Shown piece by piece: positions 774 through 39,307 of a stretch of 64,000 nucleotides of DNA. The position numbers were made by a program, and so were the translations under genes. A model generated the notes under the pieces. That model did not search any database, was not told where the DNA came from, and was given only the letters and a program-made list of their open reading frames with translations. Each line of letters begins with the position of its first letter. The first letter of the stretch is position 1. Source of the DNA: Opitutia bacterium (GTDB lineage Bacteria > Verrucomicrobiota > Verrucomicrobiia > Opitutales > T3Sed10-336); contig JBJHCF010000008.1 in NCBI GenBank assembly GCA_050506795.1, forward strand, positions 32,001 through 96,000, read 5' to 3'.

Positions 774-828
774 AGCACCACAAAACGACAAGATTTTTGT
801 CGAAAGAAGTTTTGCATCCGAGTTGTCC

Positions 829-3180
829 TCACAATCCCGATACCCCATCCCCTGCCGAAGCGGTCTGAAACGCTGACAAAGAAGAAATCGTCCTTTCCAT
901 CCACTGAGCGGCAGCGGCCACCGTGTCGCCGGTCAGCCGTCTTTCCTTTCCAGCCAAAAGAGCGCCCAAAAGCAAACCCAGAAATTCGTCCGGTTCCTCC
1001 GCACTACCGTCCTCCGGCCCTCCCACCCGTCGGATCTCCCGAAGCGTCACCGCTTTGCCAACCAGTTTGGGATCCGACGCTTCGATCCGGCTGCCCGCGG
1101 AAGCCTGCTCCCGTATAAGCGAAAACGGTCGATTGCGAAGCTCCACGCGCCAGGGTAATCCGAGCGTCTTGACTTCGCCTGGACGTCCGGCAAGGAGGCA
1201 GATTCCTCCTGCGACAGACCCCTTGGCGAATGCCGAAGGCCACACCCATTGGTCGACGCCATTGCCGTTCTTTTCCGGCAGCCACAATCGGCCCGTCGGC
1301 AACTCACTTCCCTCCTCCGGCATGATTTCAACAATCCCGTGAAGAGGGATTTCCTCGGAAGACCGATGCCCCAGCCGGTGGAGGTGTTCCCCTAAAGCCA
1401 TCAGTACTTCCGAGAGGGAATTGTCGCCGGAGAGAACCTCGTCCTGCGACAACAAAACGTAGCCGTGTCCGAACTGCCGGATATCCAAACTGATTTCCTG
1501 TTCGTCCGGTCCATTCGCCGGCCGGTCCGGCAACGGGACAAAGGCCCTCCGCACCCGGTCCGCCACGGCTTCGGTCGGACAGTTTATCCGGCACACAATC
1601 GAACCAACGGAAAGCCTTACCCCGACCGCGTCGCGCTGCCGAAACGGACCGACACCGGACGGATCGGGTTGTGCCGCCGCTCGGCCGGCACTCAGCATTT
1701 CCTGCGCCGTCCAATCCGCCAGCAAAGACCAGACCTGGTTTCGGAGGACGGAGGGAGCCACTGCTTGGCCCGCATTCTCGTACCCCTCCGTCAAAGCCTC
1801 GACGATTTCTTCCGGCGACTTGCCTTCCGTGGCCATAAACCAGATCCAGGCCGCCGTGTCGTTGAGATCGAGCAAGCGTCCGTCACTCTCCCTATAAAGG
1901 CAAAGCCGCTCGTTTCGCACGACCTCTCCGACGCGATGGCGCCGCAAAGGACGCGCTTCCGGATTAACACCATACAGCCGCTCGGCCACGGCCACATCGG
2001 CGTAGCGGGGAAAAGGGAAACAACTGAGGGAAAAACCGCTGTCCGCGCAGGGAAAAAGTCTCGTGTAACCACCGCGACGCCGTTCTTCCGCCTCCGTCTC
2101 CTTGATCCACCGCTCCGGCAACGAATCTTCGACGTCGGCCCGATCACGGCCCACCGCCGCCAGAGACAACGTGTCCTCAACCAGGGCGCGTTTATTTTCT
2201 TCTTCCTCTTCTCTTCCATGCCCGCGGGAGGCGCACAGGTCCAGGGAAGGGCTGAGATTGCACTCCATCACCCACGGTTTTAAATCGGCGTCGATCATAC
2301 AATCCACCCCGAGCAATTCGTAACACCCGGTCGGGTCTCCCTTGATTTGACGCGTACGCGCCAAAAAAGTCTCGCGCGCGGAAATCAGGAGCAGGGTCAG
2401 CATCTCGCGGATACGGTGAAACAGGGCATCCCCGTCGATTCCTTCAGCGGCCAGCCATTCCTTGTACTTCTGCAAACTCAAAAACGTCACCGGCGATTCC
2501 ACCCCCGAGTTGGCGGCGTTGATGTCCGGATTGGTCAAATGAGCGAACAAATTGTCCCGGTTTTCAGGATCATAAGGCGCCGAAGCCAGCTTCGCCGACC
2601 CTTCGCGGTAAAGATAAACACGCAGGGGCTCGACCGAGGTCACCAGGACATAAAGGCGCAACACGTACTTGTGCCCCTGATACAGGTGGGGACGCCGAAG
2701 GTACTGCTGAACCATCCATTTATCGTCCAAAGGGACCGCCGCCGGGTCCTCGACCAGCGAAATCCCCTTTCCTTTGGAGGCGTTTTTGGGTTTGAGAATC
2801 CACTCGCTTCGGGGGTCGGCAAAAGCGGCCTCCTGCAAGGCACGATAATCTTCGGGCATTTCAAAAACGGGCGGAACGAAATCAAAGCGGGACGCCGATT
2901 CGCCTCCCCACTCGATTCGCGCCCGCTCCCGCGCCGCCCTTACGGTCGACGCCAGCCGACTTTTTATCGTCAGACAGTGATTCCCCGGAATATGGTTCAG
3001 GGTCATGCCCCGCTTCAGCCGATCGAAGAAGGCGGCGGGCGGCATTCCGGTAAACCAGCAATCGGTCCACCGTTTCTCCGTTCCGGGCTTCGCCCCGCCT
3101 TTTAATAAGGCTTCCTTAAAAAACAAGTCCTGGGCGGGCTTCCGCTTGCCGCCGAGGAAGAAGAGTCGCGGTTGGGACAT
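829..3180 (-). CDS. Tubulin-tyrosine-ligase (TTLL) family ATP-grasp enzyme fused to a PqqD/RRE domain and a C-terminal domain
   Basis: TTL motifs WILKP..SKGKGI, VQQY...P.L..GHKYVLRLYVLV, HLTN, YELLGVD...PWVMECNLSPSL; PqqD-like LN.TA.WIW...GKS.EEIVEAL..GY at about 1690-1930; GGAG RBS upstream. Confidence 0.85.
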   Translation of the reverse strand: MSQPRLFFLGGKRKPAQDLFFKEALLKGGAKPGTEKRWTDCWFTGMPPAAFFDRLKRGMTLNHIPGNHCLTIKSRLASTVRAARERARIEWGGESASRFDFVPPVFEMPEDYRALQEAAFADPRSEWILKPKNASKGKGISLVEDPAAVPLDDKWMVQQYLRRPHLYQGHKYVLRLYVLVTSVEPLRVYLYREGSAKLASAPYDPENRDNLFAHLTNPDINAANSGVESPVTFLSLQKYKEWLAAEGIDGDALFHRIREMLTLLLISARETFLARTRQIKGDPTGCYELLGVDCMIDADLKPWVMECNLSPSLDLCASRGHGREEEEENKRALVEDTLSLAAVGRDRADVEDSLPERWIKETEAEERRRGGYTRLFPCADSGFSLSCFPFPRYADVAVAERLYGVNPEARPLRRHRVGEVVRNERLCLYRESDGRLLDLNDTAAWIWFMATEGKSPEEIVEALTEGYENAGQAVAPSVLRNQVWSLLADWTAQEMLSAGRAAAQPDPSGVGPFRQRDAVGVRLSVGSIVCRINCPTEAVADRVRRAFVPLPDRPANGPDEQEISLDIRQFGHGYVLLSQDEVLSGDNSLSEVLMALGEHLHRLGHRSSEEIPLHGIVEIMPEEGSELPTGRLWLPEKNGNGVDQWVWPSAFAKGSVAGGICLLAGRPGEVKTLGLPWRVELRNRPFSLIREQASAGSRIEASDPKLVGKAVTLREIRRVGGPEDGSAEEPDEFLGLLLGALLAGKERRLTGDTVAAAAQWMERTISSLSAFQTASAGDGVSGL

Positions 3181-3197
3181 GCCGAAAGACTCCTCCT

Positions 3198-3551
3198 TTA
3201 ATGAGAGTCTGCTTCGGCTTCCCCCTCAGCTTCGGCCTCTCCTTCGGCTTCCCCCTCGGCTTCCGCTTCCGCCTCGGCTTCTGCTTCTGCTTCGGCTTCC
3301 GCTTCGGCTTCGGCTTCGGCTTCTCCTTCGGCTTCAGCTTCTCCCTCGGCTTCCGCTTCCGCTTCGGCTTCTCCCTCAGCCTCGCCTTCTCCTGCCGCCA
3401 TCACGTAATACCCGCTTTCCGACGTGAAATCGGAAAGAATGGCATGGCCTCCGGCAACGGCCCCAATGGCAATCACCACCGGGGCTGAAAGGGTCACCCC
3501 TTTGGCCACCAGTTTCTGCAGTTCATTTCGCCGTTTTTCTTCTTCAGACAT
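3198..3551 (-). CDS. Glu-Ala/Glu-Gly repeat peptide, putative RiPP precursor
   Basis: 117 aa: 54-aa leader with a hydrophobic stretch, then 30 E[AG] dipeptides and DSH; 12 nt after DoxX and 17 nt before the TTL-RRE gene. Confidence 0.8.
   Translation of the reverse strand: MSEEEKRRNELQKLVAKGVTLSAPVVIAIGAVAGGHAILSDFTSESGYYVMAAGEGEAEGEAEAEAEAEGEAEAEGEAEAEAEAEAEAEAEAEAEAEAEGEAEGEAEAEGEAEADSH
3210..3389. repeat. Coding hexamer tandem repeat (GCTTCG/GCTTCC-like on +) encoding (E[AG])30
   Basis: Imperfect 6-bp periodicity with synonymous codon variation. Confidence 0.9.
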
Positions 3552-3563
3552 AGTAAAAATCGG

Positions 3564-3974
3564 TTAGGAGTTATTGCCGCGGATAAAAAGGTAGCCGGCC
3601 ACAAGCAAAAGGGTCACCTGAAAACCGGCGCCTCCCATCGGGTGCGTGTCGGTGGGCATCATGTGCCATTGCCCCCAATGAACCATCAGGATCGCCCCCA
3701 ACATGACGGGGAAGACCAGAAACGCTCCGATCCGCGTGATCACGCAAAAGGTGAAACCACCGATCAGAATGAGCGCACCGGCGACGATTTCCGTCACCGC
3801 CACCAATCCGGCGATCGCTTCGGGCAAACCGGTGCCCGCCGAAAATTCGGCGATACCGCCACCCAGGAATTTATCGACCCCGTAGTAGAGAAAAATCGAA
3901 GCCAGCGCCACTCGCAGAAGCCAATGGGCGTGGCGATCCAACGGGGTGTCGGGAGCATTTGTTTGAGAAGTCAT
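3564..3974 (-). CDS. DoxX family membrane protein
   Basis: LLRVALASIFLYYG.DKF, E...G..IL.G..TR.GA, MLGAI..VHW and four hydrophobic segments. Confidence 0.85.
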   Translation of the reverse strand: MTSQTNAPDTPLDRHAHWLLRVALASIFLYYGVDKFLGGGIAEFSAGTGLPEAIAGLVAVTEIVAGALILIGGFTFCVITRIGAFLVFPVMLGAILMVHWGQWHMMPTDTHPMGGAGFQVTLLLVAGYLFIRGNNS

Positions 3975-4021
3975 GGGTTATGGTCGTGGTCGTTTGTCTG
4001 GTGTTCGTTCTAAGAATTAAC

Positions 4022-4046
4022 GACGAAAGTATCGGCGGCTTATTCC
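4022..4046 (-). promoter_or_regulatory. ECF-type promoter GGAAT-N16-CGTC for the DoxX-precursor-TTL operon
   Basis: GGAAT aagccgccgatacttt CGTC on the minus strand, about 48 nt upstream of the DoxX ATG. Confidence 0.7.
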
Positions 4047-4091: not shown

Positions 4092-4505
4092 TCACGGAGA
4101 TTCGTCATTCCCGTCGCCGCGGGCGAACATACAGCGAATGAACTCAATTTGATGCCGGCGAAGAAGAAGAATCAGGGCGGCCGCGCACCAATTAGTGGCA
4201 GCGGCAACAGTCATGGGCAGCATCGGACCCGTCAGACCGAGTTCGGTCAGGTGGGCGATGAGGGCGCCGCTCATCACCCCCCAAGTCAGTATCGCCCCCC
4301 AAGGCGCACTGTAAGGGATGAGAAGCAGGACCGCGGCGGCAAGCTCAAGCACGGCAATGAGGTAACGGCCCCCCGGCTCCATGCCTAGCGTTTCGAAAAC
4401 CGCGATGGATTCAGCGTGGCCCGTGAGCTTGGCGGCGGCGGAAGCCCCGAGGATAATGGCCGCCATGATTTGGAGAATCCACGCGCTGAAGATACGGAGT
4501 TTCAT
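4092..4505 (-). CDS. DoxX-like family membrane protein
   Basis: KLTG..ES...F..LG.EP.GRY...V.EL, MSGAL..HL..LG. Confidence 0.8.
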   Translation of the reverse strand: MKLRIFSAWILQIMAAIILGASAAAKLTGHAESIAVFETLGMEPGGRYLIAVLELAAAVLLLIPYSAPWGAILTWGVMSGALIAHLTELGLTGPMLPMTVAAATNWCAAALILLLRRHQIEFIRCMFARGDGNDESP

Positions 4506-4511
4506 GGAAGC

Positions 4512-6065
4512 TTAGCGTTTTAGCGTTTCGCGGAGGTCGGGCCGCTCGGCAACCATGCGCCAGAGGTTGCTCCCGGTGGGAATGTAGAGGTCGTCGACGG
4601 TCAGTTCACTCGGGCAGACTTTCCCCATGGCGATGGTGAGTTCCTCCAGTTCGTGGCAGGTGTTGTCGATATAGTTCTTGACCCGTACCGCCTTGGCCTC
4701 TGGAACGAGACCGGCCTGAAGTCTCGGGTCCTGGGTTGTAATTCCGACCGGACAGGTGTTGTTGCCACACTCGCGGGCCTGGATACAACCGAGTGCGAAC
4801 ATGAAACCGCGGGCCGTGTAGCAGGCGTCGGCTCCGAGGGCGAAGGCGATGCACTGGCGGCCGGCCTCGACGAGTTTTCCGGCGGCGAAGACGTGCGTTC
4901 GGTCGCGCACCTCTTCACTCTTCAGGATCTGCACGAGGCCGTGAAGAGCGGGAAAGAGCGGCAGGCCGATACGGTCCAGAAAGGCGCTCGGTGCCGCCCC
5001 GGTGCCGCCCTCCCCACCATCAATCGCGATCGAGTCGGGAAAGACGTCCTGCCGCTTCATTTCCACGACCAACGCGTGCAATTCGTCGAATGAGCCGACG
5101 CAGAGTTTGATTCCCACCGGTAGGGCGACCAGCGACTGAACATGACCGATGAACCGGACGGTGGAGGGAAGGTCGACGCACTCGGAGTGATAAGGCGGAG
5201 AAATGATGTCCTCCCCCATCGGAACCTTCCGCAACTCCGCGATTTCCGGGGTGATTTTTTCCTTCGGCAGGAGGCCGCCCTTGCCCGGCTTGGCGCCTTG
5301 GGAAAACTTGATTTCGATCATTTTGACCTGGGGCTTGTCGGCCACTTCGCGGAGTAAGTCGGGGTCGAGCGCGCCGCTTTCGGTGCGAACACCGAACTTG
5401 GCGGTCCCTATCTGGAAAGTCAGATCGGCTTCCTCCATCAGGTGGTACTTCGGGTAACCGCCCTCGCCGGTGTTCATGGTGACCCCGGCCATCGCGGCCC
5501 CCCGCGCCAGGGCGCGGACGGCGTTTTCTCCGAGCGCACCGTAGCTCATGGCACTAATCATCAGCGGACGGGTCAGAGTGTGCGGCCGTTCCACCCCGCG
5601 ACTCTCGCCCAGCGTGAGCCGGAACGGCCGGGCCGCCTCCTTGTGGGTTGGGAACATGGAGTGGCGCAGCTTGATTTCGGTCGCGTCGTAGTCGAGCAAA
5701 CTTCCGAAGGAGGCGGCGGATTCGACGTTCTTGGCCTTGCGGTAGAGGTTGGTCCGTTCCAGGCGATTGAAGGGACGCTCTTCGCGGTCGTTGTTGAAGA
5801 GATACTGGCGAAGTTCCGGGCCCAGGCTTTCAATCAGGTAACGGCCCTGCCCGATGAGACCGAAGTTGCGCAGGAGGGTGTGTTCGCTCTGAACGTAACG
5901 GTAGAAGAGGTTGACAATCAGGAAAAAAAGCGCGGCGACCGTAGCGAAGTGAAAGTAAAAGGAGATCGTGCTGCCAAGCGCGAAAAAGAATGCCGGCAAG
6001 ACAAACAGGGCCGCATTCGTAAACCGAGCCAGCTTATGGAGATCGACGCGAAGTGCTTGTGGCAT
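4512..6065 (-). CDS. FMN-binding glutamate synthase family protein (stand-alone FMN domain with N-terminal TM helices)
   Basis: ISAMSYGAL, NTGEGG, EIKFSQGAKPGKGG.LP..K, DGGEGGTGAAP and the 3Fe-4S motif CIQARECGNNTCPVGI. Confidence 0.9.
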   Translation of the reverse strand: MPQALRVDLHKLARFTNAALFVLPAFFFALGSTISFYFHFATVAALFFLIVNLFYRYVQSEHTLLRNFGLIGQGRYLIESLGPELRQYLFNNDREERPFNRLERTNLYRKAKNVESAASFGSLLDYDATEIKLRHSMFPTHKEAARPFRLTLGESRGVERPHTLTRPLMISAMSYGALGENAVRALARGAAMAGVTMNTGEGGYPKYHLMEEADLTFQIGTAKFGVRTESGALDPDLLREVADKPQVKMIEIKFSQGAKPGKGGLLPKEKITPEIAELRKVPMGEDIISPPYHSECVDLPSTVRFIGHVQSLVALPVGIKLCVGSFDELHALVVEMKRQDVFPDSIAIDGGEGGTGAAPSAFLDRIGLPLFPALHGLVQILKSEEVRDRTHVFAAGKLVEAGRQCIAFALGADACYTARGFMFALGCIQARECGNNTCPVGITTQDPRLQAGLVPEAKAVRVKNYIDNTCHELEELTIAMGKVCPSELTVDDLYIPTGSNLWRMVAERPDLRETLKR

Positions 6066-6086: not shown

Positions 6087-7256
6087 TCAAGTGCGGGCGG
6101 CTTCGGTGACCGCGCGTGCGACGCGACGCGGGACCTCTTCATCGAGAGCCGACGGCAGGATCCGCTCCGGGTCCGGCTCCGGGATGCTCCGGGCGATCGC
6201 CTCGGCGGCGGCCGCTTTCATCGCGTCCGTTATGCGCGGTGCGCGCGCATCCAGGGCGCCGCGAAAAATGCCGGGAAAGACCAGTACGTTGTTGACCTGG
6301 TTGGGGAAATCACCACGGCCGGTGGCGACCACCGACGCGCCGCCGGCCCGGGCCTCGTCGGGGAGTATCTCCGGATCCGGGTTGGCCAGGGCGAAAATGA
6401 TCGGGTCCGACGCCATGCGGCGAATATCCGCCGCCGTGAGCAATCCCCCGCGGCTGACTCCGACGAAGACGTCGGCTCCCTCGAGCATGGATTTGAGGCC
6501 ACCCGCTCGATCCTCGGGATTGCTGTATTCGAGCACGGCTTGTTTCACCGGGCCGAGGTCGTCGCGGCCGGAGTGGAGCGCCCCCTTGGAATCACAGACC
6601 ACCACTTCGCCCACCGTATCACAAACCCCGGAGACCTGATCGACACAACGGAGCAAACGCACAATGGCGCGCCCGGCCGCGCCCGCGCCGGAAATGACAA
6701 TCCGCAAATCGGAAAACTTTTTCCCGGCCACTCGGGCGGCGTTAATCAATCCCGCCAGCAAGACCACGGCGGTGCCGTGCTGATCGTCATGCATGACGGG
6801 AATACCGAGATCCTGGAGCCGGTCTTCGATTTCGAAGCAGCGGGGAGCGGAAATATCTTCGAGATTCACGCCGGCGAATCCGGGCGCCAACGCGCGCACC
6901 GCAGCCACCACGGCATCGGGCTCGCGAACGTCGAGGCAGATCGGCCAGGCGTCGATGCCGGCAAGTTTTTTGAAGAGAGCCGCCTTCCCCTCCATTACGG
7001 GCATGGCGGCGGCGGAACCGATATCGCCGAGTCCGAGCACGGCTGAACCATCGGTAACCACGGCCACGGCGTTGCCCGCCACAGTCAAATCGCGCCGGGC
7101 AGACCGATCGTCCCGGATCGCCCGGCACACCGCGGCCACACCGGGAGTGTAGGCGCGACTCAAATCCTCGAGATCCTCGAGGGGAACCTTCAACGCGAGT
7201 TCGATCTTGCCGCGACAGGCACGATGCAGTTCCAGGCTTTCGCGGTCAATTGTCAT
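6087..7256 (-). CDS. NAD(P)-dependent malic enzyme
   Basis: AYTPGVA, TDGSAVLGLG, VMEGKA.LFK, NLEDI, HDDQHGTA, GAGAAG, LANPDPEI, NQVNN; start set at ATG 7256. Confidence 0.92.
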   Translation of the reverse strand: MTIDRESLELHRACRGKIELALKVPLEDLEDLSRAYTPGVAAVCRAIRDDRSARRDLTVAGNAVAVVTDGSAVLGLGDIGSAAAMPVMEGKAALFKKLAGIDAWPICLDVREPDAVVAAVRALAPGFAGVNLEDISAPRCFEIEDRLQDLGIPVMHDDQHGTAVVLLAGLINAARVAGKKFSDLRIVISGAGAAGRAIVRLLRCVDQVSGVCDTVGEVVVCDSKGALHSGRDDLGPVKQAVLEYSNPEDRAGGLKSMLEGADVFVGVSRGGLLTAADIRRMASDPIIFALANPDPEILPDEARAGGASVVATGRGDFPNQVNNVLVFPGIFRGALDARAPRITDAMKAAAAEAIARSIPEPDPERILPSALDEEVPRRVARAVTEAART

Positions 7257-7272
7257 AAGGCATGCATTTCTG

Positions 7273-7297
7273 GACGCACCGGTCGGCGTTTTATTCC
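7273..7297 (-). promoter_or_regulatory. ECF-type promoter GGAAT-N16-CGTC (malic enzyme / glutamate synthase / DoxX)
   Basis: GGAAT aaaacgccgaccggtg CGTC. Confidence 0.7.
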
Positions 7298-7377
7298 GTC
7301 CCCCAACTCTTGTCCGCGCAAATCCGGGAAAGCTTTGACACGGCATCCCGGCCTGCCGGTACGATTCGCAGATCGGG

Positions 7378-10088: not shown

Positions 10089-11414
10089 CTATCCGCCGCC
10101 GTTGAAATACCGGCTGGTTCCCAGCGCTTCGACCGCTTCTCCAATCCTTTGAAGCGCCAGCACATAGGCGGCGCGCCGCATGGAGATTCCGTGTCGATCC
10201 GCCAGGGCCTTCACCTCGCCGAATTGTTCCCGCATGCGTTTGTCCAACCGGCCATTCACCTCGTCTTCGCTCCAATAATCGCCCGAACGGTTCTGCACCC
10301 ATTCAAGGTAGCTCACCGTCACCCCGCCCGCATTGGCGAGGATGTCCGGCACGACCAGGACGCCCTTTTCATCCAGCACGGCGTCCGCCGAATCGTCGGT
10401 GGGACCGTTCGCCAGTTCGAGAACGACACCGGCCCGCACGTTTTTGGCGTTTTGTTCGCCGATGACGCCGGACAGGGCGGCCGGAATGAGAATATCGACG
10501 TCCAGAGCGAGCAATTCCTCATTGCTGAGTGTCTCGGCATCGACCGTTTCGCAAACGCTCCCTTCGCAATAGACCGCCTTGAGCTGACGCGTTTCGTTCT
10601 TGGAGTGAATCAGGCTTGGCACGTCGAATCCTTCTTTGCGGTAAATTCCCCCGCGTGAATCACTGACCGCCACCACCCGATAGCCGTCCGCATGCAGGAG
10701 CCGCGCCACCGCCTGACCGGCGTTGCCGAACCCCTGCACAGCCACGGTGGTTTTCGGAGGATTCCATCCCCGTTCCTCCTCCAACTGCTTCAAACAGATG
10801 TAACCCCCGCGACCGGTGGCCGCATCGCGTCCGAGACTGCCGCCCAGAGCGATCGGCTTTCCCGTGATGACGGCCGGTGTTCGGCGGCGGACGACGTTAG
10901 AATACTCGTCCATCATCCACCCCATGATCCGTGCGTTCGTGTACACATCGGGCGCCGGGATATCGGTTTCGGGGCCGATGAAATCGGCAATGCGGGCAAT
11001 GAACCCGCGGCTTAAACGCTCGAGTTCCCGCGTCGAAAGCGACTTCGGATCGACCATGATTCCACCCTTGGCCCCTCCCAGTGGCAGCCCCATGACCGCG
11101 CATTTGCAGGTCATCCAAAACGCCAGGGACTTGACCGTATCCAGGGTCAACCCGGGATGGAAGCGAATCCCTCCCTTGCCGGGCCCGCGCAGGTCGTTGT
11201 GGCGCACCCGATACCCCTCGAACACACGCAAACTTCCATCGTCCATCCGCACCGGCACCGATACGGTAACGATCGATTTTGGATACTTCAATCGTTCGAT
11301 CACCTCGGGATGAACATCGAGATAACCCGAGGCCTCGTCCAGCCGGGCAATCGCTCTTTCGTAACTTCCGCTGGAAGCGTTTTCGGTTCGTTGGGCCTTT
11401 TCGCGGTCAGACAT
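10089..11414 (-). CDS. gdhA: Glu/Leu/Phe/Val (glutamate) dehydrogenase
   Basis: [63 protein letters not shown]. Confidence 0.93.
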
Positions 11415-35168: not shown

Positions 35169-35600
35169 ATGAAATCCAAAGTTCTCATTCTCTGCACCGG
35201 CAATTCCTGTCGCAGTCATATGGCGGAAGGCATTCTGCGGGCCGCCGCGGACGACCTGTTCGACGTTTACAGCGCAGGCTCCAACCCCAAGGGCCAGGTT
35301 CACCCTCTCGCCATCGAGGTTCTCAAGGAAATCGGCATCGACGCCTCCGGGCATAAGTCGGAGCACCTCGACAAGTACCTCAACGCCGGTATCAATACGG
35401 TAATCACCGTCTGCGGCAACGCCGATCAGGCCTGTCCCGCCTTTCCCGGAAAGGTCAATCGTTACCATTGGGGCTTCGAGGATCCCCCGCACGCCGTCCG
35501 CGACGGCGAAACCGAAATTGATGCCTTCCGCCGTATTCGCGATCAGATCAAACTCGTTTTCGAAGCCTACGCCGCCGGCTGCCGCGAAGCCCAAAGTTAA
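35169..35600 (+). CDS. arsC: Arsenate reductase (LMW-PTP/thioredoxin type)
   Basis: [23 protein letters not shown]. Confidence 0.92.
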
Positions 35601-35619
35601 CCGACCTCTCCACCGTATC

Positions 35620-35961
35620 ATGAAGACCATACTCGTTTACGATCCGCCCATGTGTTGCTCTACCGGCGTCTGTGGACCCGATGTCGATCCACTGCTGCCG
35701 CGCTTTGCCGGCATGCTCACCCAACTGGAAAACTTCGGGGTGAAAGTCAAACGCCACAACCTGGCACAGGAACCGGTGGCCTTCGCACAAAACCCGCAAG
35801 TCCGCGCGATGCTGGAAGAAGAAGGTGTCGAGGTCCTTCCCCTTATCTTCGTGGACAACGTCCTGGAAATGAAAGGACGCTATCCCGAGACCGCCGAACG
35901 CGGCGCGTTCGTCAAGCGTGCCCGCCAAGCCGACTCAAATAAGACTTCAGGGGCAGCATAG
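35620..35961 (+). CDS. arsD: Arsenite metallochaperone
   Basis: YDPPMCCSTGVCGP.VD, NLAQEP..F, GRYP. Confidence 0.92.
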   Translation: MKTILVYDPPMCCSTGVCGPDVDPLLPRFAGMLTQLENFGVKVKRHNLAQEPVAFAQNPQVRAMLEEEGVEVLPLIFVDNVLEMKGRYPETAERGAFVKRARQADSNKTSGAA

Positions 35962-35962
35962 A

Positions 35963-37795
35963 ATGGATTCCAACGGACAACGACACCCGCACGCCCTGAA
36001 CGAACTGCTCGACGCTCCCGCGCGCTACACTTTCTTCACCGGCAAAGGCGGCGTGGGGAAAACCTCGATCGCGTCGGCCACGGCGCTCGCATTGGCCGAC
36101 GCCGGGAAACAGGTTCTCCTCATCAGCACAGATCCGGCCTCCAATCTGGACGAAGTCCTCGGATTGGAATTGAGCCGCGAGCCGCGGGCCGTACCCGCCT
36201 GCCAAAGTCTGTCCGCCCTCAATATCGATCCGGAAGCGGTGGCCGCCGAATACCGCGAAAAGGTCATCGGCCCCATGCGCGGGGTTCTGCCTGAAACGGC
36301 TCTCAAAGCGATGGAAGAACAACTCTCCGGGGCCTGCACCATGGAGATCGCCGCCTTCGATGAATTCACCGGCTACCTCAGCGACGAGGCCGCCAACGGA
36401 TTTGATGTCATCGTTTTCGATACCGCCCCGACCGGTCACACGCTTCGTCTGATGGCGCTCTCGCAAGCGTGGACGAGTTTTCTCGACGACAACACCAGCG
36501 GCAATTCCTGCCTCGGGCCGCTGGCTGGGCTGGAGAAACAACGTCAAGCCTACGCCCAAGCCGTCGAAGTACTCAAGGACGCCGACCGCACCGCCGTCTT
36601 TCTTGTCAGTCGCGCGAACAGGAGCACGCTGAAAGAAGCCCGCCGCACCTGGAAGGAGTTCGCCGATCTCGGAATTAAGAACCAAAGCCTCATTCTCAAC
36701 GGGTGGTACGCGCCGGCGGACGCCCACCGTGACGATCCCGTCGCGAAGCGCTGGCTGGAGAGGCAGAGCGCCGCCGTGGCGACCGAGGCCGCCTTCATCG
36801 ACTCCCTGCCTCTCTTCCGCTCCCCACTCCTCCCCGGCAATCTTATCGGGTTGGACAATCTGCGCGCGTTTTATCAGGGCACGGAAATCGATTCGCCCGC
36901 ATCCGCCGAAGCGGTCCAGCTCACCATTCCGGACCTGCCGGACCTCGGCCGATTGGCCGATCAGCTCGCACCGGCCGGCCGCGGTGTGATCATGACCATG
37001 GGCAAAGGCGGCGTCGGCAAGACCACCATCGCGGCGGCCCTGGCCCTCGCTCTCGCCGACCGCGGCGCCAAGGTGCGCCTGTCGACCACCGACCCGGCGG
37101 CCCATCTCACCGATGCCGTGGGCGACAAAGGGGACATCCCGCTCACCGTCGAACGCATCGACCCGAAAACCGAAACCGCCGCCTATATCGAAGAAGTGCT
37201 CGCCACCCAGGGGGCCGACATGGACGCGGAAAACCGGGCCCTCCTGGAGGAGGACCTGCGCTCGCCCTGCACCGAGGAAATCGCCGTCTTCCGCGCCTTC
37301 GCGCGCACCGTGGCCAAAGGAGAGGACGAGTTCGTCGTGCTCGACACCGCGCCCACCGGCCACACCCTCCTGCTTCTCGACGCCACCCAGTCCTACCACC
37401 GCGAGTTGGGACGGCAGACGCGTTCCACCCAGCAGGCGGAGGAGGTCGAGAAACTCCTCCCGCGCCTGCGCGACCCGGACTTCACCCGTGTCCTCCTCGT
37501 AACTCTCCCCGAAAGCACCCCTGTACACGAAGCGGCCGCCTTGCAGGCCGACTTGCGCCGCGCGGAAATCGAACCCCACGCCTGGATTATCAACCAGAGC
37601 CTGGCCGCCGCCGAAACACGGGAGCCGCTACTGGCCGCGCGCGGCCGGGCGGAAATCCCCTACCTGCACGAAGTCGTCGGTGAAAACCCGGACAAGCCCG
37701 TCTACCTGATCCCCTGGAGCCCCGTCGAGCCAACCGGACTCGAAGGCCTGCGCCAACTCGTCGGCAAGGTGCAAGCCGTCGCTTCCAAGCAATAA
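35963..37795 (+). CDS. arsA: Arsenical pump-driving ATPase
   Basis: Two GKGGVGKT and two DTAPTGHT motifs, STDPASNL, SGACT, SPCTEE. Confidence 0.95.
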   Translation: MDSNGQRHPHALNELLDAPARYTFFTGKGGVGKTSIASATALALADAGKQVLLISTDPASNLDEVLGLELSREPRAVPACQSLSALNIDPEAVAAEYREKVIGPMRGVLPETALKAMEEQLSGACTMEIAAFDEFTGYLSDEAANGFDVIVFDTAPTGHTLRLMALSQAWTSFLDDNTSGNSCLGPLAGLEKQRQAYAQAVEVLKDADRTAVFLVSRANRSTLKEARRTWKEFADLGIKNQSLILNGWYAPADAHRDDPVAKRWLERQSAAVATEAAFIDSLPLFRSPLLPGNLIGLDNLRAFYQGTEIDSPASAEAVQLTIPDLPDLGRLADQLAPAGRGVIMTMGKGGVGKTTIAAALALALADRGAKVRLSTTDPAAHLTDAVGDKGDIPLTVERIDPKTETAAYIEEVLATQGADMDAENRALLEEDLRSPCTEEIAVFRAFARTVAKGEDEFVVLDTAPTGHTLLLLDATQSYHRELGRQTRSTQQAEEVEKLLPRLRDPDFTRVLLVTLPESTPVHEAAALQADLRRAEIEPHAWIINQSLAAAETREPLLAARGRAEIPYLHEVVGENPDKPVYLIPWSPVEPTGLEGLRQLVGKVQAVASKQ

Positions 37796-37878
37796 TCCTC
37801 AAACTTTGTCACCACTTCACATTGCAACCAATCAACCATGACACTAACCAACCCGACTGGCACTCGGTTAATCCCAAA

Positions 37879-37926
37879 GTAGAACACGCTTCCAGCGTGT
37901 TGTCTCAGGCTGGAAGCCTAAGCTAC
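37879..37926. repeat. Inverted pair of GTAG-type REP palindromes (second family)
   Basis: GTAGAACACGCTTCCAGCGTGTT / CTCAGGCTGGAAGCCTAAGCTAC. Confidence 0.7.
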
Positions 37927-37982
37927 TTCGAGCCAGCGCCTAAACCGAGTGCCATTTTAACCAACTATCATACCGAAAACAC

Positions 37983-38198
37983 ATGACCACCTACGTTTAC
38001 GAAACCATCCCATCCGACAAAAACGAAGAGCCCAAGCTCTTTGAGATTCAGCAAAGCATGAAAGACGCCCCGCTGACTCGGCACCCCGAAACCGGTGAAC
38101 CCATCCGCCGCGTCATCCTCGGAGGTTACGGCTTGATGAAGTCGGAAGGCGGGGATGCCAACGAAGGCTGCTGCGGCCCGAGCTGCGGCTGCCACTAA
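37983..38198 (+). CDS. FmdB-like small protein with a Cys-rich tail
   Basis: M.TYVYE...FEI.QSM.D.PLT.HPETG.P.RRVI.GG; tail GCCGPSCGCH. Confidence 0.8.
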   Translation: MTTYVYETIPSDKNEEPKLFEIQQSMKDAPLTRHPETGEPIRRVILGGYGLMKSEGGDANEGCCGPSCGCH

Positions 38199-38239
38199 TC
38201 AAGAAAACGGGAGTGTTGGAGGATTGGAGTGTTCGCGTT

Positions 38240-39307
38240 ATGAAGAAAAACAAGCCTGTCGGAATCAGTTTCTTTGAAAAGAACCTCACCGTCTGGGTCG
38301 CTCTGTGTATGGTTGCGGGTGTTCTAATCGGAAAGTTTCTTCCCGGAATCCCTCAATTTCTGAGCCGATTCGAATACGCGCAAGTGTCGATTCCGATCGC
38401 CGTCCTGATCTGGTTGATGATCTACCCGATGATGATGAAGGTGGATTTCACCAGCATCAAGAATGTGCGCAAGGAACCCCGCGGGCTTTATGTTACCTGG
38501 ACGGTCAACTGGTTGATCAAGCCGTTCACCATGTTTGCGATTGCGGCCTTTTTCTTCTACTTTCTATTCAAGGCCTGGATTCCGCATGAACTGGCCCGGG
38601 ATTATCTCGCCGGAGCCGTTATCCTTGGCGCGGCGCCCTGCACGGCCATGGTCTTTGTCTGGAGCCACCTGACGAGGGGAAACCCCGCCTACACGGTCGT
38701 CCAGGTCGCGACCAATGACTTGATCATTCTTGTCGCTTTCGTGCCCATCGTGGTTCTTCTCCTGGGAATTGGCGGGGTCAGTATCCCCTGGGACACGCTG
38801 TTGCTCTCGGTCGTCCTTTTCGTGGTTATTCCTTTGGCCGGCGGAATCTGGACCCGGAGAGCCGTGATCAAACGCAAGGGTGAGGCGTATTTCCACCAGC
38901 GGTTCATCACCAAGTTCAACAACGTTACCATCATTGGTCTCCTCCTGACCCTTGTCCTCATCTTCTCATTCCAAGGGGACGTCATTCTCGGAAATCCGCT
39001 CCATATTCTCCTGATTGCGATTCCTCTGATCATTCAAACCTTCCTGATCTTTTTCATCGCGTACTTTGTCAGTAAAAAACTGCGGATCTGTCATGATGTC
39101 GCCGCACCCGCGGGCATGATCGGCGCCTCGAATTTCTTCGAACTGGCTGTGGCGGTAGCCATCACGATCTTCGGCGCTTCATCCCCTGTGGTTTTGGTCA
39201 CGATCGTCGGCGTGTTGGTCGAAGTTCCGGTGATGCTGGCGCTGGTCAAGATCGCCAACCGGACGAAGCACTGGTTCCCCGCCAGAGAAAGAGCACAACC
39301 CGAATAG
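38240..39307 (+). CDS. acr3: ACR3 family arsenite efflux transporter
   Basis: MIYPMM, VNWLIKPF, GAAPCTAMVFVWS, GASNFFELAVA, LVEVPVM. Confidence 0.95.
   Translation: MKKNKPVGISFFEKNLTVWVALCMVAGVLIGKFLPGIPQFLSRFEYAQVSIPIAVLIWLMIYPMMMKVDFTSIKNVRKEPRGLYVTWTVNWLIKPFTMFAIAAFFFYFLFKAWIPHELARDYLAGAVILGAAPCTAMVFVWSHLTRGNPAYTVVQVATNDLIILVAFVPIVVLLLGIGGVSIPWDTLLLSVVLFVVIPLAGGIWTRRAVIKRKGEAYFHQRFITKFNNVTIIGLLLTLVLIFSFQGDVILGNPLHILLIAIPLIIQTFLIFFIAYFVSKKLRICHDVAAPAGMIGASNFFELAVAVAITIFGASSPVVLVTIVGVLVEVPVMLALVKIANRTKHWFPARERAQPE

Follow-up and report, generated by a model that had tools for sequence, protein, structure and literature searches.

The operon described here lies on the minus strand of a 64-kb stretch of DNA from an Opitutia bacterium (hereafter the window) and encodes a DoxX-family membrane protein, a small Glu-rich precursor peptide, and a large enzyme in which a tubulin tyrosine ligase (TTL)-like (TTLL) domain is joined to a recognition element (RRE) for RiPPs, peptides that are made on the ribosome and modified after translation. 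The features below were defined from the open reading frame (ORF) list together with Pfam and NCBIfam scans of the genes in the window and, for the enzyme, from structural models. The DoxX, peptide, and enzyme genes run head to tail with measured gaps of 12 and 17 nt, confirming the tight same-strand packing described in the initial annotation of this DNA.

3564..3974, minus strand: DoxX-family membrane protein, 136 amino acids (aa), first gene of the operon (Pfam PF07681, E 4.2e-12)
3198..3551, minus strand: precursor peptide, 117 aa (ORF list)
3396..3551, minus strand: leader, precursor residues 1-52, with a charged N-terminal region, LxxPxV, a hydrophobic stretch, and a conserved HAILSD...GYYVMA junction
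3198..3395, minus strand: core, precursor residues 53-117 plus the stop codon, with 30 consecutive E[A/G] dipeptides and then DSH
829..3180, minus strand: three-domain enzyme, 783 aa (ORF list; Pfam TTL and PqqD)
1981..3180, minus strand: TTLL-type ATP-grasp ligase domain, enzyme residues 1-400 (Pfam PF03133)
1681..1968, minus strand: PqqD-type RRE, enzyme residues 405-500 (PF05402 and model)
832..1668, minus strand: phosphoenolpyruvate carboxykinase (PEPCK)/HprK-like domain that has lost its Walker A motif, enzyme residues 505-783 (model and profile comparison)

The N-terminal region of the enzyme belongs to the TTL family, as had been claimed at the outset: residues 60-314 match Pfam TTL (PF03133) with an E-value of 7.6e-55 and 186.6 bits against a cut-off of 20.1, and other ATP-grasp Pfam families gave only sub-cut-off matches on the enzyme. 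When a family profile built from 25 members was searched against solved structures, the closest relatives of the ligase domain were the glutamylases TTLL6 (E 2e-60) and TTLL7 (E 9.5e-55), with a third glutamylase, TTLL11, at E 6e-28, the glycylase TTLL3 at E 1e-15, and TTL itself at about 1e-13. The TTLL6 alignment spans the entire core as well as the TTLL-specific helices that follow it and places the conserved ATP-grasp catalytic and nucleotide-binding residues opposite identical TTLL6 residues. Residues K130, P131, R175, D293, E306, and N308 and the LSPS motif are invariant in all 25 aligned members.

To compare residues that distinguish TTLL activities, TTLL6 positions were read from the profile alignment, with the offset fixed by two TTLL6 sequences that differ at C179/Q180 and H362. 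According to excerpts of a TTLL6 study, initiases have Arg and elongases Gln at the Q180 position, the H362 position of TTLL6 is Ile in TTLL4, and the donor γ-carboxylate is held in all TTLL glutamylases by two lysines, TTLL6 K283 and K377, positions at which glycylases have hydrophobic or polar residues (bioRxiv 10.1101/2020.06.07.139295). In the bacterial family the Q180 position is occupied by Arg in 17 and Lys in 8 of the 25 members (K136 in the window enzyme), whose H362 equivalent is Leu (L309) without exception. TTLL6 R241, which binds the donor α-carboxylate, corresponds to invariant K197, and K377 corresponds to invariant K330. With its invariant ATP-grasp residues and with residues typical of initiases at Q180 and H362, the enzyme looks like an active branch-initiating TTLL. 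Glutamate appears to be the likeliest donor, although it is not a secure one.

The middle of the enzyme is an RRE. Residues 431-495 match Pfam PqqD (PF05402) with an E-value of 1.1e-7 and 32.4 bits, above the cut-off of 23.4; NCBIfam provided no model for either the enzyme or the peptide, returning only a weak lasso-PqqD match and low-complexity noise. In an AlphaFold model of residues 405-783 (predicted local distance difference test score, pLDDT, 83), the first 95 residues form a winged helix of three strands and three helices. The best structural match of this domain is the leader-bound lasso B1 protein TfuB1 (6jx3_B), with a Z score of 13.2 and a root-mean-square deviation of 1.7 over 84 aa, followed by TbiB1 (Z 12.1; Foldseek E 3e-4); PqqD matches at Z 8.8, and other RREs rank after the B1 proteins. 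The proposal that this domain folds as an RRE thus passed its test at the levels of both structure and profile. The description of the enzyme as a ligase fused to a PqqD-like domain was correct in the RRE fold, but PqqD lies between the ligase and a further, C-terminal domain of 280 aa.

This C-terminal domain, overlooked in the original two-domain view, resembles a degenerate form of HprK-related kinase A. Modeled alone, residues 505-783 (pLDDT 84) match PEPCK with a Z score of 10.1 over 257 of 279 residues, the next unrelated entries scoring at most 5, and HPr kinases (HprK/P) match the second half at Z 4.3. A Foldseek search with the C-terminal domain alone returned nothing at E ≤ 0.001 (PEPCK lay at about 4e-3), and the sub-threshold leads given by Protein Atlas, ScmC and Hpr_kinase_C, were borne out by later profile comparisons. 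A profile of the domain found 769 cluster representatives at E ≤ 1e-3. Of the 150 relatives listed, 23 were scanned for domains, and 22 of these match NCBIfam HprK-related kinase A with E-values of 1e-19 to 1e-34, all under its 200-bit cut-off; the sole nonmatching protein is a truncated TTL protein. Most of the scanned relatives are about 400 aa long and carry PqqD before HprK_rel_A. Comparison of the window domain with one such PqqD plus HprK_rel_A protein by hhalign gave a probability of 97.9% and placed the Walker A motif of the relative, PGASGRGKTT, opposite PEKNGNGVDQ. No conserved GK[ST] was present across 37 family members, and the window enzyme did not match the HprK-related kinase A model TIGR04352. 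We infer that the third domain is a pseudokinase kept for substrate handling or assembly.

Two of the 23 scanned relatives carry an MNIO (MbnB/BufB-like) domain before the RRE-HprK module, and two others carry an NTP_transf_5 nucleotidyltransferase domain in this position. These four proteins (P0190, P0249, P0174, and P0214) have three domains and about 730 aa, an architecture that parallels the TTL fusion. Since the module is found on MNIO and NTP_transf_5 proteins as well, RRE plus the HprK-related domain appears to behave as a portable substrate-docking unit of RiPP-type enzymes, and these fusions may point to more unexplored peptide-modifying systems.

The peptide encoded beside the enzyme consists of MSEEEKRRNELQKLVAKGVTLSAPVVIAIGAVAGGHAILSDFTSESGYYVMAA, then 30 uninterrupted E[A/G] dipeptides and a terminal DSH, and an exact count confirmed the single unbroken run reported originally. 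Its Glu-Gly/Glu-Ala tail resembles the tails of tubulin, on which TTLLs act. From residue 53 onward, the core comprises 30 Glu, 24 Ala, 8 Gly, and one each of Asp, Ser, and His; the peptide has no Cys, and its core lacks Lys and Thr and has a single Ser near the C terminus. The hydrophobic stretch of the leader covers approximately residues 18-39, with Kyte-Doolittle values of up to 2.2 in 15-aa windows. In the leader alignment L11 and P24 are invariant, within the block LLxxLSRGxxYxAP. Of 113 leader-bearing ORFs, 80 show the pattern Y..P.[LMFIV]: the short peptides account for 63 (of 70) and the cytochrome-containing forms, described below, for 17 (of 43). In actinobacterial lasso peptides, YxxPxL has been reported as the leader motif (PMC6784204, in excerpt). 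The tails of related peptides follow the pattern (GE/AE)n, and their cores contain a median of 16 Glu residues (range 6-31), and the C termini of the 70 short peptides are EG in 30, EA in 8, ES in 4, KG in 4, and GN in 3, with others in the remainder. The peptide ORF was also considered as a spurious or low-complexity artifact, a candidate ruled out by conservation of the leader at the protein level in 76 of 80 related loci.

These loci came from a search of bacterial genomes for relatives of the enzyme. A word-based search found at least 462 homologs of about 800 aa, the best non-self match having 44% identity. A locus scan with the single window protein gave no relatives; a pattern scan of one genome per species that used the alignment succeeded, yielding 206 confirmed relatives, from which 80 loci were fetched (81 with the window). 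They come mostly from Halomonadaceae, Marinobacter, Ectothiorhodospiraceae, and Robiginitomaculum and other Alphaproteobacteria, and the cluster is present in the culturable strains Alkalilimnicola ehrlichii MLHE-1, Marinobacter lipolyticus SM19, and Halomonas halodenitrificans DSM 735. The initial annotation had in advance staked its proposal on homologs being accompanied by an adjacent Glu-rich peptide, and a leader-bearing ORF was found in 76 of the 80 related loci. In two of the loci without a leader match, L070 and L073, the stretch ends at the enzyme. The small peptide is present in 61 loci, at a median distance of 111 nt from the enzyme gene and within 300 nt in 53 of the 61, and a longer paralog is present in 43, with both in 29; these counts leave out L011, which does carry the peptide.

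The leader is also confined to the neighborhood of the enzyme. A search of the genome that contains the window found one enzyme and one leader-bearing peptide, and five other whole genomes gave nine leader-profile matches, of which eight fall within the enzyme locus and the ninth lies about 18 kb from it. A word-based homolog search with the leader alone produced no candidates, the tool being limited for such a query. The genomic pairing of enzyme and leader is near-obligate and exclusive, and enzyme and peptide appear to constitute an uncharacterized pairing in about 200 bacterial species. Among 300 further genomes sampled from the phylum of the window, none yielded the enzyme at E ≤ 1e-20; by this thin sample, the cluster in the window's organism was probably acquired.

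Three further observations concern this family. An Algimonas metagenome-assembled genome (L056:2417-3768) has two tandem leader-bearing ORFs by the enzyme gene that lack the Glu repeat and have Cys-containing cores in which Pro, Gln, and Thr are abundant, that is, another core type under the same leader. At L011:5105-7780 the enzyme and DoxX frames are joined as an 891-aa ORF, which may be a fusion, a missing stop codon, or a sequencing error. The NCBI names of TTL-RRE members include "amylase" (many), "tubulin polyglutamylase TTLL5," and "PqqD family peptide modification chaperone"; the amylase label appears to be a propagated misannotation.

The longer paralogs, of 200-280 aa, begin with the same leader followed by (GEAE/GEAK)n and then carry a SoxA/TsdA-type cytochrome c domain with a CxxCH motif (examples are L064:6826-7482, L033:3953-4801, and L001:1900-2646). 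The Cys in the sequence MVQiCMvaPM is conserved in at least 90% of the 43 paralogs, and the domain is monohaem and possibly His/Cys-ligated, as in thiosulfate-oxidizing enzymes. In Robiginitomaculum-type loci, the cytochrome protein, encoded divergently from the enzyme, is the only leader-bearing gene. Covalent haem attachment to such cytochrome domains occurs outside the cytoplasm. Because the same leader heads these domains, it must presumably double as an export signal or membrane anchor, a role with which its charged start and hydrophobic stretch rich in Ala, Gly, and Val agree. The enzyme has no hydrophobic export segment and needs ATP, and therefore modification would precede export. The substrates would include whole cytochrome-bearing proteins. 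The assignment of the cluster to the RiPPs is accordingly only partly sustained: a small precursor with leader and core does lie beside an RRE enzyme, but the leader is export-like and 43 loci have cytochrome proteins in addition to, or in place of, the peptide. A precedent for modification ahead of export is provided by the bufferins, RiPP precursors that undergo modification in the cytoplasm, leave it by means of a Sec signal peptide, and whose cluster includes DoxX and an extracytoplasmic function (ECF) sigma factor (PMC11626156, in excerpt).

Collectively, these data lead us to favor, with moderate confidence, a dedicated enzyme-substrate pair that would carry out leader-guided side-chain glutamylation before export, the chemistry being a prediction. 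In this mechanism, the cytoplasmic enzyme would use its lasso-B1-like RRE to dock the leader of the neighboring peptide, with the degenerate HprK-related domain probably assisting; the YxxPxL-like motif of the leader sits at the start of the signal-peptide-like hydrophobic stretch. Docking of the leader by the RRE is suggested by the conserved leader motif and by the exclusive co-occurrence of the two. The TTLL-type domain would then use ATP to ligate amino acids, most likely glutamate, to the γ-carboxyls of the glutamates in the (EA/EG)n core, producing isopeptide branches like those made by branch-initiating TTLLs. The modified, more polyanionic product would be exported via the same leader, and the cytochrome paralogs, which share the leader and an acidic linker, would probably be handled likewise. 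A complex prediction with the RRE (residues 405-504) and the leader (residues 1-56) gave a score of 0.02 and a mark of 0.32 and was run without controls; it weighs neither way.

Several points weigh against leader-guided glutamylation. The favored chemistry is a prediction. Of the two lysines that bind the donor γ-carboxylate in TTLL6, K283 lies opposite an invariant Phe, F233, in a stretch where the hidden Markov model alignment contains an insertion; either the donor may not be glutamate or this stretch may be misaligned. The docking motif is imperfect as well, as the window leader has LxxPxV where the family has YxxPxL, and the Tyr is absent in 26 of the 43 cytochrome paralogs, which mostly have VxxPxM. 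In two of the 80 loci, L006 and L028, both with adequate flanks, no peptide gene was detectable. As for export, the leader has no conserved twin arginine, and thus export by the twin-arginine translocation pathway is not indicated, and a cytoplasmic enzyme that acts on an exported protein needs a window of time before translocation. Such a limit on export is noted for bulky modifications in the bufferin study (PMC11626156, in excerpt), and branched chains may likewise pass SecY poorly.

The Phe at the K283 position bears most directly on the possibility that the same pair performs another chemistry, in which Gly, Ala, Asp, or an amine is added, or in which the C terminus is extended as by TTL, TTLL11, and RimK. 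A Phe there would suit a glycylase, given the hydrophobic or polar residues of glycylases at the two lysine positions, and TTLL11 starts chains at a free C terminus (PMC11574253, in excerpt). However, the match of the family to glutamylases is some 45 orders of magnitude better in E-value than that to TTLL3 or TTL, the equivalents of K377 and R241 are kept as Lys, and the initiase-type residues at the Q180 and H362 positions favor attack on a side chain. In addition, the C termini of the peptides vary, and therefore a defined C-terminal acceptor is unlikely. We consider a different chemistry unlikely overall.

It is also conceivable, though we judge it quite improbable, that the peptide and the cytochrome paralogs are unmodified acidic proteins, exported or anchored, and that the enzyme serves as a chaperone or export regulator or acts on a cytoplasmic target. 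The leader does look like a signal peptide or anchor, the cytochrome domain demands export, and other bacteria are known to connect a membrane anchor to a cytochrome c domain by a flexible acidic linker. Yet the invariant Pro and the LLxxLSRGxxYxAP block are kept across Gammaproteobacteria, Alphaproteobacteria, and the phylum of the window, unlike in a generic signal peptide, and a generic signal peptide would not occur only beside the enzyme. The invariant ATP-grasp catalytic positions argue for an active ligase, and the tail of the peptide imitates the Glu-Gly/Glu-Ala-rich tails of tubulin, the substrates of TTLLs.

Cross-linking of the graspetide or microviridin type, with lactone or lactam rings and a loss of 18 Da, had been listed as an option and has in its favor that an ATP-grasp enzyme beside a leader-bearing peptide is the graspetide layout, but it is extremely improbable, as the ATP-grasp domain is of the TTL family and the window core, without Lys or Thr and with one Ser, offers no side-chain nucleophiles.

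Comparison of the predicted glutamylating pair with known systems reveals partial likenesses to several of them. With the TTLL glutamylases (the initiases TTLL4, TTLL5, and TTLL7, and TTLL6) the window enzyme shares the Pfam family, the catalytic and initiase-type residues, and an acidic Glu-Gly/Glu-Ala substrate. In contrast to them, it is bacterial and lacks a microtubule-binding domain, its RRE and HprK-related domain presumably recognizing the substrate instead; the K283 equivalent is Phe, and the substrate is not tubulin but a dedicated, co-encoded, exported protein. The lasso B1 proteins TfuB1 and TbiB1 are the best structural matches of the RRE, and the YxxPxL-like leaders are like those of actinobacterial lasso peptides, but in the window enzyme the RRE is part of a fusion, with a ligase on one side and a pseudokinase-like domain on the other, and Pfam scans of the window genes found neither a lasso cyclase nor a B2 protease. 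The HPr-rel-A system, a bioinformatically defined and RiPP-like pair of TIGR04352 and the PqqD-family chaperone TIGR04353, is homologous to the C-terminal half of the enzyme; the window protein differs from it in lacking Walker A and in having a TTL domain rather than a kinase as its catalytic partner.

The likeness to bufferins lies in the export-signal-like precursor N terminus, the DoxX gene in the operon, the stress-type promoter, and a substrate range from peptides to proteins (PMC11626156, in excerpt). Moreover, the same RRE-HprK module is fused elsewhere to BufB-like MNIO domains. The window system differs from bufferins in that ligation is predicted instead of heterocycle formation, the peptide has no Cys, and DoxX is present in only 8 of 81 loci; no MNIO/DUF692 domain (PF05114) was found in the window genes scanned with Pfam. 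Two other bacterial glutamylating enzymes are more distant. RimK poly-α-glutamylates ribosomal protein S6 (PMC10375531, in excerpt), and SidJ is a Legionella glutamylase (PMC6858067, in excerpt). RimK belongs to another ATP-grasp clade and extends a C terminus, whereas SidJ, which has a kinase fold, targets a host-cell process; unlike the window enzyme, neither has an RRE or a co-encoded leader-bearing substrate.

A literature search pairing tubulin tyrosine ligase or TTLL with RiPP, PqqD, or RRE returned nothing relevant, although Iyer et al. 2009 may describe bacterial TTL contexts, and two RRE survey papers have no mention of tubulin or TTL in their main text. The statement in the initial annotation that no characterized class of this kind is known is thus in keeping with the literature searched. 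A bacterial origin of TTL domains has been argued by the Aravind group in a 2012 paper that cites Iyer et al. 2009 for it (PMC3495828, in excerpt).

We tentatively advance a broader possibility, which we hold with less confidence than the pair itself: that bacteria have true TTLL polyglutamylases with co-encoded, tubulin-tail-like substrates whose modification is leader-guided and coupled to export, yielding branched polyanions and polyanion-tethered envelope cytochromes in salt- and alkali-loving species; that this system or a relative of it was the prokaryotic source of the enzymes of the "tubulin code"; and that the RRE-HprK module is a general docking unit for TTL, MNIO, and nucleotidyltransferase classes. 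If the predicted chemistry is borne out, this would be the first class of ribosomal peptides or proteins matured by a tubulin-type ligase and the first TTLL-type glutamylation in bacteria, it would bear on the origin of the tubulin-modifying enzymes, and the culturable strains that carry the cluster would serve as simple test systems. The present analysis also gives the uncharacterized HprK-related kinase A module a context and corrects the widespread amylase misnaming. The options for the role of such a polyanion include binding of cations or protons at the membrane surface, tethering of cytochromes, and metal buffering; metal binding by the peptide is speculation.

The operon is flanked by two candidate signals:

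4022..4046, minus strand: GGAAT-N16-CGTC, a promoter-like motif 47 nt upstream of the DoxX start
786..802, minus strand: weak terminator-like hairpin, 27 nt past the enzyme stop codon, with six pairs, three of them G-C, and then a T-run

The window contains 16 exact copies of GGAAT-N16-CGTC, where 1.08 would be expected and 100 shuffles gave at most 5, and spacers other than 16 between GGAAT and CGTC gave zero to three matches each. The whole 4.94-Mb genome has 95 copies, and the first 96 kb of contig C8 account for 19 of them. As the motif is enriched in the window, fixed in spacing, and rare genome-wide, it is a real, locally concentrated promoter-like signal. We take it to be similar to ECF promoters, the label "ECF-type" being one of resemblance. 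The operon appears to be one member of a regulon that is clustered locally and has an ECF-like promoter, and the sites look like a dense regulon island of an ECF-type sigma factor. The window ORFs scanned with Pfam included no sigma factor gene. The earlier claim that the operon has its own ECF-type promoter therefore stands for an enriched promoter-like motif upstream and is weaker for the sigma factor class. None of the 113 leader-peptide genes in related loci has an ECF-like motif upstream; the promoter motif is a trait of the window's organism and not of the enzyme-peptide family. The hairpin is weak evidence for a terminator, as sites with a hairpin and T-run are no more numerous in the region than in shuffles.

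The 16 window sites of the motif are at positions 1206, 4046, 7297, 7378, 9600, 11521, 12461, 19296, 19449, 24933, 26246, 26330, 43484, 45041, 57846, and 62085. Sites lie at or just upstream of the 5' ends of the genes for DoxX, malic enzyme, an OsmC/α-β-hydrolase fusion, and glutamate dehydrogenase and of several ORFs without a Pfam family.

Genes that recur beside the enzyme, counted over the 81 loci, are as follows:

DinB-family protein gene: 40 of 81 loci
ECF sigma factor gene: 20 of 81 loci, with a small zf-HC2 anti-sigma-like gene clustering with it in 7
Rhodanese gene: 16 of 81 loci
DUF3047 gene: 12 of 81 loci, including the window
DoxX gene: 8 of 81 loci, including the window
Gene for a glutamate-synthase-domain flavin mononucleotide (FMN) protein: 7 of 81 loci, the window and six Marinobacter

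Thiol, sulfur, and oxidative stress form the common theme of these neighbors, in bacteria adapted to salt and alkali. DoxX, originally presented as a part of the system, was ruled out as a core component by its low frequency and is an accessory of a subgroup: all eight loci that have it also have a window-like small peptide with a HAIxSD...GYxMxAxGEAE junction. The operon DoxX scored 25.3 bits against the HvfX family, for which the cut-off is 80.

Two further genes lie upstream of the operon in the window:

4092..4505, minus strand: DoxX_2 gene, upstream of the promoter motif (PF13564, E 3.1e-10), of uncertain membership in the system
4512..6065, minus strand: membrane-associated glutamate-synthase-domain FMN protein (PF01645, E 1.7e-83), a recurrent neighbor

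No relatives of DoxX_2 were found in the 80 related loci. Also beside the operon are genes for malic enzyme (6087-7346) and glutamate dehydrogenase (10089-11414), both behind GGAAT-N16-CGTC. Together with the glutamate-synthase-domain gene they may supply glutamate or reducing power, or their presence may be a coincidence. Farther along the window, positions 35518-39307 hold an arsenic-resistance set (ArsD, ArsA, and an SBF/ACR3-type carrier) and, after it, a tandem universal stress protein.

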